This document shows, in pieces, positions 1,419-17,867 of a stretch of 25,652 bases of DNA (positions are counted from its first letter, which is position 1; each line of letters opens with the position of its first letter). The notes under the pieces are model-generated. The model was not told the DNA's origin. It did not search any database and saw only the letters and a list, made by a program, of their open reading frames with translations. Source of the DNA: a virus (Duplodnaviria > Heunggongvirae > Uroviricota > Caudoviricetes); IMG/VR virus record IMGVR_UViG_2531839479_000006; one strand, written 5' to 3'. Made by a program: the position numbers and the translations under genes.

Positions 1419-3893
1419 TTAAAAATCAGCCTGATTCGGAATCAGTTTTTGCCAGATAGCTGAAACGTATTTTGCCTGGTAACGGGCGTCATCAAGTGCA
1501 TTATGGCGCTCACCTTCGAATGGAATAGCCGTTCTGGCATCGAAGTCTATGGCTTTCCCCAGCTCAACGATTGTGCGTACATCGCGATCGTTGTAGTAAC
1601 GCCACGGGCAGGGGATCCCCTGCCGTTCGTATGAACGGCGCAAAATCGTGTTGTCGAAGTTGGCTCCATTTCCCCAGACCTGAACAAAAAATTCACCGGA
1701 GTTTTCGTCGATAAATTCCCGCAATTGTAACAGTGCATCATCTAACGGGATTTCATCGGTCATAATGGCAGATTGCGCTTCGCGTGATTGCTTAAGCCAC
1801 CATTTAATGGTGTCTCGATCAATGACTCCGCCAGCAGTTTCCAGATCGATAGTCTTACTAAATTCCGGTCCCATATCTCCGGTTTGCGGATCGAAAAATA
1901 TTGCACCTATTGAGATAATCGGGGCATCAGGATTTTTTCCCATGGTTTCAAGGTCGATCATTAGATGGTCACACGTCCTACTGGCGGATGTGATTTCGTG
2001 ATGACCGTTCACCTTAATTGAGTGATCTGCCGTCTCGCCAGTTTCATTATCGCTATTGTGATGCTGATTGCCGCCAGTGTTCTTCTTGTTTGGATGTTCA
2101 GCGCCTTCCATTTCCTCCGGATCATCTTCCTGAACTTCAACCTGATACTCTTCATCGAATGTTTCCTGGTATGTTGCGTCGCCCATCACCGCGCCACAAT
2201 CAGGGCAGTTGCCGCCGCCGGTCTGACCGCAGGCGGTGCAGATCTTTTCCGGTTCCTGTTGCACTACTGGTTCAGGTTGTTTCGTTTCTGGCTCGTTTTG
2301 TAACGCATTTGGGCTGTTTTGTTCCGCTTTCTGGCCGTTCTGTTCCGTTTCTTGCTGGTTCTGGTTCACAGAATCGCGGGTTTCCATCCCCTTCACCCAT
2401 TTCGGATCATTCGGATCGCTAATTCCTGCAACAAATTCACCACGTGATACTGCAAGCAGTTCATCGGCGTCAGGCTGGCTGATATTGGCTGCCTGCATAA
2501 TGTTGTTTACTTCGTCAGCGGGAACTTTTACCGGCCCTGGTTGTGCGGTCGTGTCAGATGCACCAGTATTTTGTTGTGAACCTGAGTATGTACTGTTTTT
2601 GCGGACGAAATATTCTTCTTTCGTGATTTCAGTAGCCCCTGCAGCCAGTGCCTTATCCAGACCAGAAGGTTTGTTTGCGCGACCGTATTTTTCGCCGTCC
2701 TTATCGGTGAAAAGGAAGTAGAACGGTCCCTCACGCTCTACAGATGGTTCGTCTTCCACTTCGCATTCGGTTTTTTCGTTGTCCGGCATTGCCGTTTCCA
2801 CTGCATCAGTTTCTGGTACTGGTGACGGGAGAGTACCAGCTGTGCCCTGATTTGTTCCTTCGTCATCTTCAAACACGCCCTTGGTAGTCAGGTATTCAGT
2901 GATGTATTTGTTCAGTGCTACGGGATCTTTGTGAATGTCGATCGGACGCTCACGGACAAGACCAAAAATAGGCTGACGGTCGTAGCGAACGGCATCGGGT
3001 TGTTTGCGCATTGATGCGGAAATGCGCTTCCAGTCTTCGCGATCTTTGTCGATAACTTCATTTTTTGCCCAGCGATGGATGCTGCCGTCAATGTTTCCGG
3101 TATCAATATCGCCAGGCCAGAGAGCGCAGGCCAGTTCTTCATCCAGCGTTTTCCATGTCTGCTTGTATTCGCGACAAATGGCGGCAGTGACTGGGTTGAT
3201 TTTTCCTGCTGAGTTTTCAGTGTTCTGTTGATTGACTCTGGCGCTGGCGAGATCAACAACAGACGTGTATTTTCCAGTCTCTTTGCGCTCTGCGTCCTGC
3301 CGTTTTTTCCAGTTACGTAATTCAGCCTGAATTTCGGGCCATTTGGCACCCGGATTACATTTGTGTTTAACCCATCCGATAGCGAACAGTTTGCGTTCCG
3401 GATACATAGCGTTAATTTCAGGCGTTTTCATCAGTGCTTCAACGATATGCCCGTCAAAGGTAGCAACATCTTCCTGCAGTAATTCCTGCGCGTCAATCGC
3501 CATATCAACGGTGATGTTTTCACATGTACCGAACTTAACCAGGACCGCGTTCTGTACTTCAAGGGACAGCTTGTCAAAATTGACGTTCATCGGATCGGAT
3601 TCTGGTTCGACCGGAATAAAGGAAGCGGATTCCTCATCCCAGCGGTTTTCCTGCATATATTCAGCATCCCAGGAATCGAGGGCAGGGCGGGGTATACCGG
3701 GTTTATCCTCGCAAACAAGAAATTTATAAGCGCAGTCCTGAGCAGCCGGATAATGTTCCAGGAATTGCCAGTGAAATTTTGCGCGGGCGCGACGTTCATC
3801 ACCGGCTTCAATGGCAGTGGCTACAGCGACGGCACCTTCTTCCTTTATTGCCTGTTCGTCCGGAATAGCGGCGCAAATAAAGACTTTACTCAT
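1419..3893 (-). CDS. Prophage exonuclease, 824 aa, with C-terminal DnaQ-like DEDDh 3'-5' exonuclease domain and a central CxxC...CxxC motif
   Basis: C-terminal motifs read directly: IDLETMG (Exo I), WGNGANFDNTIL (Exo II), HNALDDARYQAKY (Exo III with His). Central CTACGQTGGGNCPDCG looks like a zinc ribbon. Sits where lambdoid phages carry exo/recombination genes. Confidence 0.75.
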   Translation of the reverse strand: MSKVFICAAIPDEQAIKEEGAVAVATAIEAGDERRARAKFHWQFLEHYPAAQDCAYKFLVCEDKPGIPRPALDSWDAEYMQENRWDEESASFIPVEPESDPMNVNFDKLSLEVQNAVLVKFGTCENITVDMAIDAQELLQEDVATFDGHIVEALMKTPEINAMYPERKLFAIGWVKHKCNPGAKWPEIQAELRNWKKRQDAERKETGKYTSVVDLASARVNQQNTENSAGKINPVTAAICREYKQTWKTLDEELACALWPGDIDTGNIDGSIHRWAKNEVIDKDREDWKRISASMRKQPDAVRYDRQPIFGLVRERPIDIHKDPVALNKYITEYLTTKGVFEDDEGTNQGTAGTLPSPVPETDAVETAMPDNEKTECEVEDEPSVEREGPFYFLFTDKDGEKYGRANKPSGLDKALAAGATEITKEEYFVRKNSTYSGSQQNTGASDTTAQPGPVKVPADEVNNIMQAANISQPDADELLAVSRGEFVAGISDPNDPKWVKGMETRDSVNQNQQETEQNGQKAEQNSPNALQNEPETKQPEPVVQQEPEKICTACGQTGGGNCPDCGAVMGDATYQETFDEEYQVEVQEDDPEEMEGAEHPNKKNTGGNQHHNSDNETGETADHSIKVNGHHEITSASRTCDHLMIDLETMGKNPDAPIISIGAIFFDPQTGDMGPEFSKTIDLETAGGVIDRDTIKWWLKQSREAQSAIMTDEIPLDDALLQLREFIDENSGEFFVQVWGNGANFDNTILRRSYERQGIPCPWRYYNDRDVRTIVELGKAIDFDARTAIPFEGERHNALDDARYQAKYVSAIWQKLIPNQADF

Positions 3894-3972
3894 GTTGTTT
3901 TAACCTCATTACAGATTTAAGGGTGAACAAATCCCTGCCATTGCTGGCATATAAAATGAAACCGGATATTAA

Positions 3973-4176
3973 TTACGGCGCTGTTTTAAGTCCTGCCGGG
4001 ATTTCGTTATTATCCATGTGAATAACTTTATCGACCGGATAGCAGTTACCGGGAATTTTTTGTTCTGCTGCGGCAGCCATGCATTCTTTCATTGAACCGT
4101 AAATGTCAATAACCATGTCAACAGGCTCGCCAGTATTAAGAAAAACAGTCAGAGTGAGGGCAATAGCAGTATTCAT
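3973..4176 (-). CDS. Small hydrophobic-N-terminus protein, 67 aa, in the position of ydfD in dicB operons
   Basis: Internal Met with AAGGA 8 nt upstream; N-terminus MNTAIALTLTVFL is signal/TM-like. Its ATG overlaps the dicB stop by 4 nt. The six-frame ORF extends to 4230 without a ribosome binding site. Confidence 0.5.
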   Translation of the reverse strand: MNTAIALTLTVFLNTGEPVDMVIDIYGSMKECMAAAAEQKIPGNCYPVDKVIHMDNNEIPAGLKTAP

Positions 4177-4361
4177 TGCCAGTATCCTTTTTGCATCGGG
4201 CGTAAACGTGCCAGCATTGAAAGAATGCATATTTTATTTAATAGCTCCCGTTCGTATTTTCTCTTATTAATGGCATCTTCAGTAAATACTGGGTTACTGA
4301 TAGTGACACCAATTTCAAAACAACCTTCAGACGTATTGACGTTTGGTAATAACGTTTCCAT
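4173..4361 (-). CDS. dicB: Cell division inhibitor DicB homologue, 62 aa
   Basis: 62-aa ORF METLLPNVNTSEGCFEIGVTISNPVFTEDAINKRK...LARLRPMQKGYWQ closely matches E. coli DicB as I recall it, and has the same length. GAGGA sits 7 nt upstream of the ATG. The six-frame ORF (4173-4457) has an unsupported N-terminal extension. Confidence 0.65.
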   Translation of the reverse strand: METLLPNVNTSEGCFEIGVTISNPVFTEDAINKRKYERELLNKICILSMLARLRPMQKGYWQ

Positions 4362-4540
4362 TATCGCGTCCTCAACAATGAATTTTGTGATGCGGTGCCT
4401 GGTGCCTCCAGGTGACGTTAACCAGTTAATAATTAACGCCGGATACAGAGAACCCACCCATAAGAACCAATACGGAAGTCAACTGGCCTTTTTAACTGTT
4501 CCGCGTGCGCTGAGCCGCATTCACCGCATCACAAAATTCA

Positions 4541-4605
4541 CTTTAAAAGGGGCGGGTATCATGGGAAAAACAAAACGGATACCCGCCAAAAGGTAATCAA
4601 CATGG
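4541..4605 (-). ncRNA. dicF: DicF-like small RNA candidate with 3' hairpin
   Basis: Minus-strand reading UUUUGGCGGGUAUCCGUUUUGU...GAUACCCGCCCCUUUU. The core resembles E. coli DicF (UUUGGCGGUAUCAGUUUUAC...CCGCCC, from memory). A 10-bp GC-rich stem followed by a short U-run ends about 180 nt upstream of dicB. Exact ends are not determinable by eye. Confidence 0.4.
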
Positions 4606-5151
4606 GTTGTTGCAGCGGGGTTGTCACTCAGGCGTATGGTCAACCTGACAACCCGGTGGACATTTGCGAGGAACGGAGAACCCCCGCCATACTTACCGCC
4701 GCGCCATTTCGCGGAGTGCCACAACCGGAAGCGCACGGTCGACGAAAATTTAACGACAGGCTATCTATGAACCAGCAACCTCGCCGTGCGCTTTCGCGTT
4801 ATGCTCTGACTTTTCAGAGAAATATCCTTTCAGTAAACTGTCAGTGCCGGATGCTCACCCGTGTCCGGCGCACACACTCCACCTCACCCGTGGAGAACTC
4901 CTTAATTACCAACCCTCAGGAGGGTGAATGTTAAAATCAACGCTTATTGCTAAATGCCTTTATCAAAATCGCATGGTAAGCAGCATTTCAATAGGCGAAT
5001 CTGCAGTTAAAAGTATTTTCGAAGAGTACTTTCGAAGAGTACTTTTCTGGGCGTGATTTTAATAAATGGAATACCAAATTACCGCCAGCAGTTTCAACGC
5101 GTATTCTGAAAGCAACTGAAAGAGCAAGTACAATTCGCGTTAACTATTTCA

Positions 5152-5559
5152 TTAAAGATTTGTGGGGTCTTTGATATCCACAGAGCCTAAAGTATGTGCA
5201 TATGGATGTGCTATTGTGCGCCCCTGTAAATTTGCATCGTTTTCTAAATCTTTTGATTTCAACAGAACATCAGCAAGACTCTGAATCATGCAGAGATAAT
5301 CAAAAACAGTTGCCGTTTCTGTTCTGACTGCTGAAATAACATGACCATTCAGGCAAACAGAAATTACCCGTTCATCAATATCGTTTTCCTGTTTTTGATT
5401 ATCAGAACAATATAGCCCTGAAAAAGCATTGCGCACATTACGAACCATATTATCGATGGTTTCTTTTTTGGTGTATGCCGGGTCAATTTTCACCAGACTA
5501 TCACCGAGTGTCGTTGCAGCAATTATCTGGATTTCTTTTGGTAAATCTTTAAATTCCAT
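5152..5559 (-). CDS. Hypothetical protein, 135 aa, leftward early operon
   Basis: Clean ORF with GAGG 7 nt upstream of the ATG. Same strand and tight spacing with the flanking leftward genes. No family recognised. Confidence 0.55.
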   Translation of the reverse strand: MEFKDLPKEIQIIAATTLGDSLVKIDPAYTKKETIDNMVRNVRNAFSGLYCSDNQKQENDIDERVISVCLNGHVISAVRTETATVFDYLCMIQSLADVLLKSKDLENDANLQGRTIAHPYAHTLGSVDIKDPTNL

Positions 5560-5581
5560 TATTAGCCTCGTTGGTTAACCA

Positions 5582-5800
5582 TTAACGTGGGTATGTAATC
5601 ATTCTGGCAATGCTTAATGCCGCTGCTTTTTCCAGATTGGTGATATCCTGCTCCAGAGCGGACAGATTTTCAGCCTGCTTAGCCCTGGCTTCATTGGCCC
5701 ATTTCAGGTCCTGCGCAGCCTTAATTTTCTGGTGCATCCACTCATAAAGTTCATCATCGGTATAGTCTGGCGCGATGATGACGGGTTCTCGTTTCTGCAT
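5582..5800 (-). CDS. Small protein, 72 aa, same size and position as YdfC of dicB operons
   Basis: ORF with GAGGA 6 nt upstream of the ATG. Identity inferred from gene order and size only. Confidence 0.55.
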   Translation of the reverse strand: MQKREPVIIAPDYTDDELYEWMHQKIKAAQDLKWANEARAKQAENLSALEQDITNLEKAAALSIARMITYPR

Positions 5801-7861: not shown

Positions 7862-8932
7862 ATGGCTAACGCCTGGCTCAGATTATGGCATGACATGCCA
7901 AATGACCCTAAGTGGCGAACAATTGCCAGGGTGTCAGGGCAGCCAATTGCAACAGTGATGGCAGTGTATATCCACCTCCTGGTGAGCGCGTCACGAAATG
8001 TCACGCGAGGTCACATTGATGTCACGACAGAAGATTTGGCAAGTGCGCTCGACGTGACAGAAGAGGTAATTGATTCAATTTTGCAGACGATGCAGGGGCG
8101 GGTACTTGATGGTGATTTAATCACTGGATGGGAAAAACGCCAGGTGCTGAAAGAGGACAACGGCAATATTTCGCAAACCGCAAAATCTCCGGCAGAGCGC
8201 AAGAGGGCGCAGCGAGAGAGGGAAAGAAAGCGGGAACAAAATGGCGATTGTCACGGCGAGTCACGAAATGTCACGCACATGTCACGACGAGTCACGACAG
8301 ATAAAGATACAGATAAAGATACAGATCAAGAAGATCAAAACACTATGGTCCATGGCGTAAAAAACGCCACGAACCAGGCAGGGGATGTTCAGACCGTCAC
8401 TCCTGGCCAGCCCGCAGGCACGACACCGGAAGCCGATTCAGCGTATGCGCTGAAAGCCGATTCGGGCGCTGTGCAGCAGGTGATGACCGCAAGGCAGGAG
8501 CAATCACACCAACTTCAGCAGCCTGAAGCCGATTCCGCCATTCAGCGGGAAGCCGATCGGGTAGTCCCGGAAAACACCGGGCAGCCTGTGGGACGAGTGG
8601 ATTATCCTGATGTGTTCGAACAGATCTGGCGGGAATACCCGTTGCGTGCTGGGGCAAACCCGAAGAAATCCGCTTTCAGTGCCTGGAAGGCCAGATTACG
8701 CGAGGGGGTGTCACCAGAGGCCATGCTGGATGGCGTGAGGCGTTACGCAAGATACCTTGCGGCTACCGGGAAAACGGGAACGGAATTTGTTCAGCGAGCG
8801 ACGACGTTTTTTGGACCGGACCGGAATTTTGAAAACCCCTGGCTGCTCCCGGTAAGCGGCACGAACAACCAGCGTTGTGTGAATCATATTTCTGAACCGG
8901 ATACCGAAATTCCACCGGGCTTCAGGGGGTAA
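7862..8932 (+). CDS. Replication initiation protein (O-like) containing the origin iterons
   Basis: ATG with AGAAGAGG upstream. Two clusters of GTCACG iterons and an AT-rich tandem repeat lie inside the coding sequence, as for lambda ori inside gene O. Confidence 0.65.
   Translation: MANAWLRLWHDMPNDPKWRTIARVSGQPIATVMAVYIHLLVSASRNVTRGHIDVTTEDLASALDVTEEVIDSILQTMQGRVLDGDLITGWEKRQVLKEDNGNISQTAKSPAERKRAQRERERKREQNGDCHGESRNVTHMSRRVTTDKDTDKDTDQEDQNTMVHGVKNATNQAGDVQTVTPGQPAGTTPEADSAYALKADSGAVQQVMTARQEQSHQLQQPEADSAIQREADRVVPENTGQPVGRVDYPDVFEQIWREYPLRAGANPKKSAFSAWKARLREGVSPEAMLDGVRRYARYLAATGKTGTEFVQRATTFFGPDRNFENPWLLPVSGTNNQRCVNHISEPDTEIPPGFRG
7990..8030. repeat. Iteron cluster 1: four GTCAC(G) repeats at 10-11 bp spacing
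   Basis: GTCACG at 7990, 8000 and 8021, GTCACA at 8010. The 17-mer GTCACGAAATGTCACGC is shared with cluster 2. Confidence 0.55.
8250..8340. repeat. Iteron cluster 2 plus AT-rich tandem repeat: candidate replication origin
   Basis: GTCACG at 8250, 8260, 8270, 8281 and 8291 (helical phasing), followed by GATAAAGATACA x2 and an A/T-rich run. Confidence 0.6.
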
Positions 8933-13074: not shown

Positions 13075-13230
13075 TAGTTAAACACACTACCGCTGTAGAG
13101 TTGTTGTCATTAAATTGCGTCATAAGTAGAATTGCTGCGGGTGCTTGAGGCTATCTGTCTCAGGCATGAACACCAAAAGGCAGATAGAGAAAAGCCCCAC
13201 CCGACTATAAATCGAAGTGAGGCCAGTCTT

Positions 13231-13437
13231 ATGTCTCGACAACTGAAGATTAGCCTCTTACGTGCCGAAAGGCAAGGAGAAGCAGGCTATGAAGCAGCAA
13301 AAGGCGATGTTAATCGCCCTGATCGTCATCTGTTTAACCGTCATAGTGACGGCACTGATAACGAGGAAAGACCTCTGCGAGGTACGAATCCGAACCGGCC
13401 AGACGGAGGTCGCTGTCTTCACAGCTTACGAACCTGA
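13231..13437 (+). CDS. mok: Mok-like overlapping reading frame of the hok locus
   Basis: ORF starting MSRQLK with GAAGTGAGG upstream, overlapping hok in another frame as in hok/sok loci. Confidence 0.45.
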   Translation: MSRQLKISLLRAERQGEAGYEAAKGDVNRPDRHLFNRHSDGTDNEERPLRGTNPNRPDGGRCLHSLRT

Positions 13438-17617: not shown

Positions 17618-17693
17618 GGCCCTTTAGCTCAGTGGTGAGAGCGAGCGACTCATAATCGCCAGGTCGCTGGTTCAAATCCAGCAAGGGCCACCA
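17618..17693 (+). tRNA. tRNA with CAU anticodon, Ile2-like (lysidine type)
   Basis: Cloverleaf folded by hand: acceptor GGCCCTT/AAGGGCC, D-arm GCTC/GAGC, anticodon loop CTCATAA, T-loop TTCAAAT, CCA encoded. Close to E. coli ileX as I recall it. Confidence 0.85.
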
Positions 17694-17700
17694 TCACATA

Positions 17701-17777
17701 CCGCCATTAGCTCATCAGGATAGAGCGCCAGCCTTCGAAGCTGGTTGCGCGGGGTTCGAGTCCTCGATGGCGGTCCA
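17701..17777 (+). tRNA. tRNA-Arg (anticodon UCG)
   Basis: Acceptor CCGCCAT/ATGGCGG (C1-G72), D-arm GCTC/GAGC, anticodon stem CCAGC/GCTGG with loop CTTCGAA, T-loop TTCGAGT, CCA encoded. Confidence 0.75.
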
Positions 17778-17790
17778 TTATCTGTACCCT

Positions 17791-17867
17791 GCGTTGTTAG
17801 CTCAGCCGGACAGAGCAATTGCCTTCTAAGCAATCGGTCACTGGTTCGAATCCAGTACAACGCGCCA
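17791..17867 (+). tRNA. tRNA-Arg (anticodon UCU)
   Basis: Acceptor GCGTTGT/ACAACGC, anticodon stem ATTGC/GCAAT with loop CTTCTAA, T-loop TTCGAAT, CCA encoded. Confidence 0.85.

Follow-up and report, generated by a model that had tools for sequence, protein, structure and literature searches.

The locus

This study concerns positions 4606-5151, with their surroundings, in a 25,652-nucleotide (nt) stretch of viral DNA (IMG/VR record IMGVR_UViG_2531839479_000006; hereafter, the window). Two elements are in question. One is the segment 4606-4927, a putative untranslated leader that lies in front of a DicF-like small RNA (sRNA) and is predicted to fold into a four-way junction on the minus strand. 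The other, at 4928-5174, is a gene for a protein of 77 amino acids (aa), broken by a 13-bp tandem duplication. The window is 100% identical to a part of Escherichia coli strain 602354 (NZ_CP025847), where it belongs to a lambdoid prophage adjoining potC.

In the annotation by the Prokaryotic Genome Annotation Pipeline (PGAP), the minus-strand early operon comprises, in this order, a cI-like repressor gene, DUF1391/ydfA, ydfB, ydfC, and a 135-aa gene. Farther leftward follow the stretch 4606-5151, the DicF-like element (about 4545-4605), dicB, a DUF1482 gene, and an exonuclease gene. A preliminary description of this DNA had stated that no convincing leftward open reading frame (ORF) lies between the 135-aa gene (5152-5559, minus strand) and the DicF-like terminator, and indeed neither the ORF list nor the PGAP annotation has a credible one. 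Its "540-bp non-coding stretch" is too long, however: the non-coding part is 4606-4927 only (322 bp), while 4928-5151 is the body of the frameshifted 77-aa gene. Likewise, the idea of further sRNA or leader sequence fits 4606-4927, a homologue of the dicF leader, but not the gene body. The GC-rich segment is real (55.6% GC in 4606-4927, against 47.9% in the whole window and 36-43% in the flanks), and so are its inverted repeats, such as CTCCAC at 4877-4882 with GTGGAG at 4890-4895 and several others. The coding landmarks of the operon are as follows.

5582-5800, minus strand: ydfC (operon annotation)
5152-5559, minus strand: 135-aa leftward gene, convergent partner of the 77-aa gene (match to phrog_1363)
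4173-4361, minus strand: dicB (operon annotation)

A leader in front of a DicF-type sRNA

It was found that the segment matches the spacer between ydfC and dicF in the Qin prophage of K-12 with 92.5% identity over about 305 nt (window 4609-4914, compared with the K-12 derivative DH1), and the K-12 spacer lies directly upstream of dicF. The two differ by a 2-nt indel. The leader occurs in 4,429 of 5,426 complete E. coli genomes (about 82%), with a median of two copies. O157 also has this leader. The gene order is also shared: ydfA, ydfB, and ydfC lie upstream, and a terminator-ended sRNA, dicB, DUF1482/ydfD, and the exonuclease gene lie downstream, all on a single strand. The ydfC-dicF leader with its 190-nt DicF precursor, in the dicBF operon of K-12 Qin, is said to have been treated by Faubladier and coworkers in 1990.

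Protein coding in 4606-4927 was ruled out by the 2-nt indel in K-12 and by the P3 segment of the junction (see below), which varies from 24 to 29 nt among relatives without keeping a frame. A 110-aa plus-strand ORF (4602-4931) and a 71-aa minus-strand ORF (4524-4736) match merely 18-21 residues of phrog_3651 and phrog_8854, respectively, and these two families are most likely ORFs miscalled over conserved RNA. An example of such miscalling is orf40 of phage cdtI, which overlaps the conserved RNA domain. By homology and position, 4606-4927 thus appears to be the untranslated leader of a DicF-type sRNA and to belong to a lambdoid prophage's leftward early operon of the dicBF type.

In K-12, RNase III cuts the polycistronic transcript to give the 190-nt DicF species, the 53-nt DicF sRNA depends on RNase E, and an internal promoter was not found in the ydfC-dicF leader (Ragunathan et al. 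2023; PMC10448788). Elsewhere, the spacer is described merely as "a long untranslated region" (PMC5069750). The Pas-sRNA preprint and two papers that map RNase III cleavage have nothing on the region 4606-4927.

The sRNA module that follows the leader consists of these parts.

4545-4605, minus strand: DicF-type sRNA module (position-for-position alignment with K-12 DicF; match in a terminator scan)
About 4588-4605, minus strand: variable single-stranded seed
4587-4578 with 4560-4551, minus strand: terminator hairpin, GGCGGGUAUC / GAUACCCGCC (inverted repeat, complementary at 10 of 10 positions)
4550-4545, minus strand: U-run

The layout is that of DicF: a short seed, a GGCGG...CCGCC terminator hairpin, and a U-run, placed between the leader and dicB. 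Both the seed and the stem differ from those of K-12 DicF. The Rfam DicF model (RF00039, gathering threshold 48 bits) has no match in the window at the gathering threshold, nor in 3800-5700 at E ≤ 5, and a relative with yet another seed variant scores 30.3 bits. It seems that the sRNA of the window is a new seed variant of the DicF kind. Because the window version lacks an Rfam DicF match, its targets may differ from those of K-12 DicF, the mRNAs of ftsZ, manX, xylR, and pykA. At least six seed/terminator versions stand behind the same junction (loci L005, L007, L018, L039, L075, and L101), including K-12 DicF, the window type (CCAUGUUGAUUACCUUUUGGCGGGUAUCC...), and the cdtI type. Of 61 distinct downstream tails, 58 have a GC stem with a U-run whose end falls 31-78 nt from the start of the tail, which is approximately the 3′ strand of helix P1. 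This count holds for a detector of 5-bp, G·U-tolerant stems; perfect stems of at least 7 bp were too strict a demand and gave 25 of 61.

The stretch from the terminator to dicB contains a second long-range duplex, UUUUGUGAUGCGGUG / CACCGCAUCACAAAA, in which 4383-4397 pairs with 4522-4536 and encloses 4398-4521 on the minus strand. Its sequence hardly differs among the window, O157, and K-12. A sub-threshold Rfam STnc100 match (33.5 bits; gathering threshold 47) outside 4606-4927 overlaps this duplex, which sits where K-12 RNase III reportedly makes the 3′ end of a 72-nt DicF.

A covarying four-way junction

Just upstream of the seed, the minus strand of the leader contains a four-helix domain, to which a covariance model (R1) was fitted.

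4607-4726, minus strand: 119-nt four-way-junction RNA domain (R1, 124.9 bits)
4725-4718 with 4616-4609, minus strand: helix P1
4714-4710 with 4703-4699, minus strand: helix P2
4698-4695 with 4657-4654, minus strand: base of helix P3 (added by RNAalifold; U-A to C-G change in phage P7)
4687-4682 with 4671-4666, minus strand: distal hairpin of P3
4654-4646 with 4626-4618, minus strand: helix P4
4692-4687 with 4639-4634, minus strand: tentative loop-loop pairing, GUAUGG with CCAUAC

The sample comprised 134 copies from pattern scans of genome and viral collections, plus the copies of phages P1 and P7 and of plasmids. The K-12 junction scores 138 bits with R1. The preliminary description had proposed looking for covariation across homologous prophages, and compensatory changes were found in the 119-nt domain. 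In the model-fitted alignment of 73 distinct copies, 97.4% of the cells were paired, against 36-56% when one partner was slid, and 13 of 28 pairs had compensatory changes, against 2.7±1.2 in shuffles (0 of 500 reached the observed value). An alignment fitted to the model favours the structure, and for that reason an unfitted MAFFT alignment is given alongside. In this independent alignment of 27 diverse copies, 95.8% of the cells were paired (29-52% when slid), and nine pairs had compensatory changes (3.0±1.1 in shuffles; again 0 of 500). The distal hairpin of P3 is kept in nearly all of the 38 sequence variants, in at least eight different stem sequences. The helices covary, while the unpaired junction and loop bases are nearly invariant.

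Which strand carries the structure? At the paired positions of the 27-sequence alignment, there are 46 G·U combinations against three A·C. Therefore, the junction RNA is the minus strand, the strand of the early operon.

The loop-loop pairing is complementary in all 27 aligned copies, with GCAUGG/CCAUGC in phage P1. Additional viral scans for non-canonical variants gave five true copies, one with a wobble and four with single-sided mismatches, so the pairing was not strengthened.

Rfam 15 gave nothing for 4606-4927 at either the gathering or the permissive (E ≤ 5, 3800-5700) thresholds, apart from implausible weak eukaryotic matches. Detection of tRNA and tmRNA over the domain was negative: Rfam tRNA matches lie only at 17618-17864, and ARAGORN gave nothing in six related loci that carry the domain. 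A description of the four-way junction was not found in the searchable literature, although much older literature lies outside that scope and an earlier description is possible. The junction is a strongly covarying domain, with no Rfam entry, inside the long-known 190-nt DicF precursor.

A long duplex upstream of the junction

The rest of the leader contains a long duplex, here called stem A, and three hairpins.

4720-4803, minus strand: stem A, a long imperfect duplex of about 25 bp, probable RNase III substrate (inverted repeat 4726-4738 / 4784-4796; minimum-free-energy folds)
4803-4776, minus strand: 5′ arm of stem A, CAUAAC-GC-GAAAGCGCACGG-CGA
4748-4720, minus strand: 3′ arm of stem A, UCG-A-CCGUGCGCUUCC-G-GUUGUG
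4804-4895, minus strand: three upstream leader hairpins (folds, inverted repeats)
4804-4819, minus strand: hairpin 1, CUCUG/CAGAG (CCCUG/CAGGG in relatives)
Within 4839-4876, minus strand: hairpin 2, GCCGGA/UCCGGC (GCCGGG/CCCGGC in Serratia)
4877-4895, minus strand: hairpin 3, CUCCAC/GUGGAG (other hairpins in its place in other prophages)

The three hairpins vary among prophages in a mosaic manner. Counting 190 nt back from the K-12 terminator places the 5′ end of the 190-nt species at CCGUGCG|CUUCCGGUUGUGG. The window has exactly the same 20-mer at this RNase III cut, inside the 3′ arm of stem A, where the equivalent cut would be 4733|4732. In the cdtI, Citrobacter, and Erwinia versions, an unrelated sequence makes a duplex at the same place (GAUGAGAGCAUU / AGUGCUCUCUUC).

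Stem A and the junction share a strand. GUUGUG (4725-4720) can pair either upstream with CAUAAC (4803-4798), at the base of stem A, or downstream with GCUGCAAC, in helix P1, and the two pairings are mutually exclusive. At minimum energy, the full leader is predicted to adopt the upstream pairing, and a 193-nt RNA beginning at the cut is predicted to form P1-P4 and the terminator.

A 77-aa gene broken by a 13-bp duplication

On the opposite strand, next to the leader, lies the second element.

4928-5174, plus strand: pseudogene of a 77-aa protein of the phrog_10348 family (Shine-Dalgarno sequence GGAGG at 4919-4923; frame broken at the duplication; 23-nt 3′ overlap with the 135-aa gene)
5018-5043, plus strand: 13-bp tandem duplication, two copies of TTCGAAGAGTACT, the frameshifting lesion (exact repeat; junction unique to strain 602354)

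The preliminary description had noticed the exact copies of the 13-mer (5018-5030 and 5031-5043), and also a 42-aa plus-strand ORF (4928-5056) with GGAGG placed 4 nt ahead of its ATG. Both are present. By my own arithmetic (25652/4^13), an exact 13-nt tandem copy is expected by chance about 4e-4 times in 25.6 kb. Neither, however, is what it had been taken for. The reading frame shifts at 5031 and meets a stop codon at 5054-5056, and the frame of about 77 codons is not intact in the window. PGAP labels 4928-5174 (plus strand) "hypothetical protein, frameshifted". When one copy of the 13-mer was deleted in silico, the 77-aa product was restored, and it matches phrog_10348 over positions 1-76 of 77 (E 2e-44). 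O157 has an annotated intact 77-aa gene (WP_000920491.1), and the same place is 13 bp shorter there. The 649 other complete genomes with the gene have a single copy of the 13-mer and an intact 77-aa frame (211 versus 224 bp). Among 5,426 complete E. coli genomes, a single one has the duplication junction, and the gene-carrying genomes showed no further variation in the copy number of the unit.

Because the 13-bp duplication frameshifts the 77-aa gene, the 42-aa ORF is a truncated remnant, and the repeat is a private inactivating mutation instead of a conserved, regulatory, or structural feature. The duplication arose most simply by replication slippage, although this origin is inferred. An antisense small gene had been suggested here; the kind was right, but the true gene encodes 77 aa and runs to 5174, into the 135-aa gene. 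A lack of conservation in relatives had been named among the refuting outcomes, and conservation divides the region in two: the structured leader is kept, whereas the 42-aa ORF and the repeat are not.

Homologues of the 77-aa protein form 33 clusters, and the full-length ones mostly have 77 aa and 53-71% identity. They occur in Klebsiella, Dickeya, Xenorhabdus, Salmonella, Morganella, Yersinia, and Serratia, all in Enterobacterales, with the invariant termini MLKSTLIAKCL...FIKDLW. The AlphaFold2 model has five helices (predicted local distance difference test, pLDDT, 96.6), and structure comparison found no similar solved fold. Neither the phrog_10348-family protein nor the 135-aa protein has a match in Pfam, NCBIfam, or PADLOC.

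The C-terminal 78 aa of the 135-aa protein are homologous to the products of 77-79-aa partner genes in Serratia and Klebsiella prophages (BLASTP identity 33-38%, E 1e-17 to 2e-16). In Serratia, Dickeya, and Klebsiella prophages, the 77-aa gene is always on the strand opposite to the early-left operon, and its partner of 77-79 aa is convergent with an overlap of exactly 23 nt. In most of these loci, the partner is the first gene after the repressor gene. The same 23-nt 3′ overlap is thus found from E. coli (window 4928-5559) to loci L142-L147 (around 3001-3451). In these comparisons, the 77-aa gene constitutes, together with its leftward partner, a two-gene cassette in convergent orientation that is conserved in Enterobacterales. 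Compared with K-12, the window has the cassette as an insertion that separates ydfC from the leader. In locus L143, the 77-aa gene is present twice in tandem (2548-2781 and 3001-3234).

Interpretation and alternatives

Taken together, the stretch very probably holds two unrelated features: the leader of a processed DicF-type sRNA (4606-4927), in which the RNA would refold and may serve as a scaffold, and a frameshifted 77-aa gene (4928-5174). The leader would be transcribed from right to left in a polycistronic RNA that runs from a repressor-controlled promoter through ydfA, ydfB, ydfC, and the 135-aa gene to dicB. In the nascent leader, the long duplex 4720-4803 would fold first. RNase III would then cut it near 4733/4732 and leave an RNA of about 190 nt ending at the intrinsic terminator (about 4545), if this prophage behaves as K-12 does. 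With the upstream arm gone, the freed GUUGUGGC could pair with GCUGCAAC and close the four-helix junction 4607-4726. Finally, a cut by RNase E between the junction and the terminator hairpin may release a short Hfq-type sRNA. The junction would most likely be a scaffold for the folding, stability, and processing of the sRNA. In the 77-aa gene, a 13-bp duplication, probably by slippage, has shifted the frame and left a 42-aa ORF that has no function of its own. The leader homology, the helices, their covariation, the strand, and the association with terminators come from this analysis, while the 190-nt and 53-nt species, as well as the dependence on the two nucleases, were shown in K-12 only.

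Several observations weigh against this interpretation. The course of processing is carried over from K-12, and the DicF there has another seed and another terminator than the sRNA of the window. Stem A is almost invariant among the Qin-type copies and offers little covariation of its own. The support for the loop-loop pairing is mixed, with one compensatory change (phage P1) and three wobbles against four rare single-sided mismatches. The fold z-score of 4540-4930 is better on the plus strand (-5.2) than on the minus strand (-2.4), although this does not outweigh the G·U/A·C asymmetry for the strand call. A Klebsiella prophage (L146 2770-2990, minus strand) has a DicF-like seed/terminator and a second-duplex module without the junction; therefore, the junction is not needed for every DicF-type sRNA, and the modules assort independently. 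Finally, such strong conservation of unpaired bases would seem to exceed what a simple processing scaffold needs.

In an alternative that I consider rather unlikely, the junction would be a cis-acting regulator of transcription, acting on the elongating polymerase or sensing a factor or ligand in the manner of put or a riboswitch. It would decide how much transcription terminates (sRNA) or continues into dicB or, in phage P1, into the tRNA genes and ban. In every case, an intrinsic terminator follows the junction at a distance of 30-80 nt, and this arrangement recurs in three operon contexts that are unrelated to one another: Qin-type leaders; the site just downstream of the cI repressor gene (at an inferred pL promoter) in phages of the cdtI, Citrobacter, and Erwinia types; and, in phage P1, the site directly behind the C1-controlled Pban promoter. 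In the cdtI-type phages and P1, the downstream genes lie beyond the terminator. As in riboswitches and other ligand- or protein-binding RNAs, a conserved multi-helix junction combines covarying stems with nearly invariant junction and loop bases, and the formation of helix P1 competes with an upstream pairing. Yet the seed variants share no conserved alternative pairing of the junction with the terminator, the neighbouring genes point to no ligand or factor, and nuclease processing in K-12 already accounts for the RNA species. Homology to the put antiterminator was rejected: the fold, with four helices in 119 nt, is unlike the two stem-loops of put, and neither R1 nor a reading of the HK022 PL-nun region gave a match.

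I likewise regard it as doubtful that the junction represents a structured-RNA family not described before and with its own regulatory task, either in the balance of termination and read-through or in gating the release of the sRNA. Such an RNA would bind RNA polymerase, a nuclease, a chaperone, or a small molecule, and phages would use it as a portable "front end" for seed/terminator modules that can be exchanged.

A plus-strand role of the structured segment, in which it would be an independent rightward sRNA antisense to the dicBF transcript or would supply the 77-aa gene with a 5′ leader or promoter region, is highly improbable and largely refuted. Apart from the z-score, CCCUCAGGAGGG (4913-4924) is able to sequester the Shine-Dalgarno sequence of the 77-aa gene, and a hairpin next to this sequence is also present in the Serratia and Klebsiella versions. 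However, the junction pairs hold on the minus strand only (46 to 3), and the two elements are distributed independently: K-12 and about 3,800 other genomes have the leader without the 77-aa gene, while Serratia, Dickeya, and Klebsiella have the 77-aa gene without the junction. Moreover, a promoter scan found no sigma-70-like promoter on the plus strand at 4600-4927, upstream of the 77-aa gene.

The notion that the 42-aa ORF encodes a functional small protein, or that the repeat is a binding site or a phase-variation switch, is refuted for practical purposes: despite the strong Shine-Dalgarno sequence with an ATG and the two 6-bp palindromes in the unit (TTCGAA and AGTACT), this form exists in a single genome with no other copy-number variant of the unit, all 649 other carriers have one copy and the intact frame, residues 36-42 are out-of-frame sequence, and the 42-aa product lacks the conserved C-terminal half with its invariant FIKDLW.

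Significance and other features of the prophage

The original finding has little weight in itself: a strain-private frameshift in a hypothetical gene had already been flagged publicly, and the GC-rich segment is the leader of a well-studied sRNA locus. Thus, a homologue of an experimentally studied leader and an annotated pseudogene were known, whereas the junction fold was not found described. The junction is widespread and is fused to different seeds. About four-fifths of the complete E. coli genomes have it, as do phage-plasmids of the P1 type and prophages of Citrobacter and Erwinia. It offers a testable handle on how DicF-type sRNAs arise and why transcription bound for dicB passes a terminator. 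The convergent cassette with its 23-nt overlap is conserved across Enterobacterales, and the fold of the 77-aa protein is confidently predicted yet unmatched.

Elsewhere in the window, these features were observed.

13139-13294, plus strand: full-length sok antitoxin RNA (122 bits), implying a hok/sok module
17618-17864, plus strand: cluster of three tRNA genes
8250-8331: short tandem repeats, GTCACGACAA (4.9 copies) and ACAGATAAAGAT (2.9 copies), inside the annotated phage replisome organizer gene; they look like origin iterons

In cdtI (L005, about 2100-2970) and in four further loci of cdtI-, Citrobacter-, and Erwinia-type prophages (L012, L016, L039, and L053), a non-coding leader of about 700 nt follows the repressor gene. 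The cdtI-type leader contains its own long duplex (ACAACGAUGAGAGCAUU... / ...AGUGCUCUCUUCGUUGU), the junction, a DicF-like terminator, and then a second duplex that encloses a conserved GGGCUCAUAACCCAAUCC. L016 and L053 have an insert with a Shine-Dalgarno sequence and a start codon in the terminator loop.

Comparison with known systems

The 77-aa gene belongs with phrog_10348, a family of phage proteins without an assigned function. The repaired product matches the family over its full length, but the copy in the window is frameshifted.

HK022 put, a processive antitermination RNA that suppresses downstream termination in cis with no need of protein factors, resembles the junction in being a structured RNA of a lambdoid early leftward transcript, upstream of terminators. 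On the other hand, put RNA consists of two stem-loops in about 70 nt (PMC9378689), in contrast to the four helices and 119 nt of the junction.

The leader of the ban operon in phage P1 (NC_005856, 68791-68892) carries the same junction followed by an intrinsic terminator, as does phage P7 (92-100 bits). The P1 record labels this site only "dicF-like region". This region supplies compensatory changes in P3, in P4, and in the tentative loop-loop pairing. In contrast to the window, it lies about 45 nt from a repressor-controlled promoter, has no long RNase III-type duplex upstream, and has a different sequence in the closing helix; tRNA genes and the ban helicase gene follow, not dicB.

A further close relative is the ydfC-dicF leader of K-12. 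The sRNA of the window has another seed and another terminator stem, and the 135-aa/77-aa cassette is added in the window. In both, the leader is followed by dicB and an sRNA that ends in a terminator, and the two have the four-way junction and the sequence at the RNase III cut in common.

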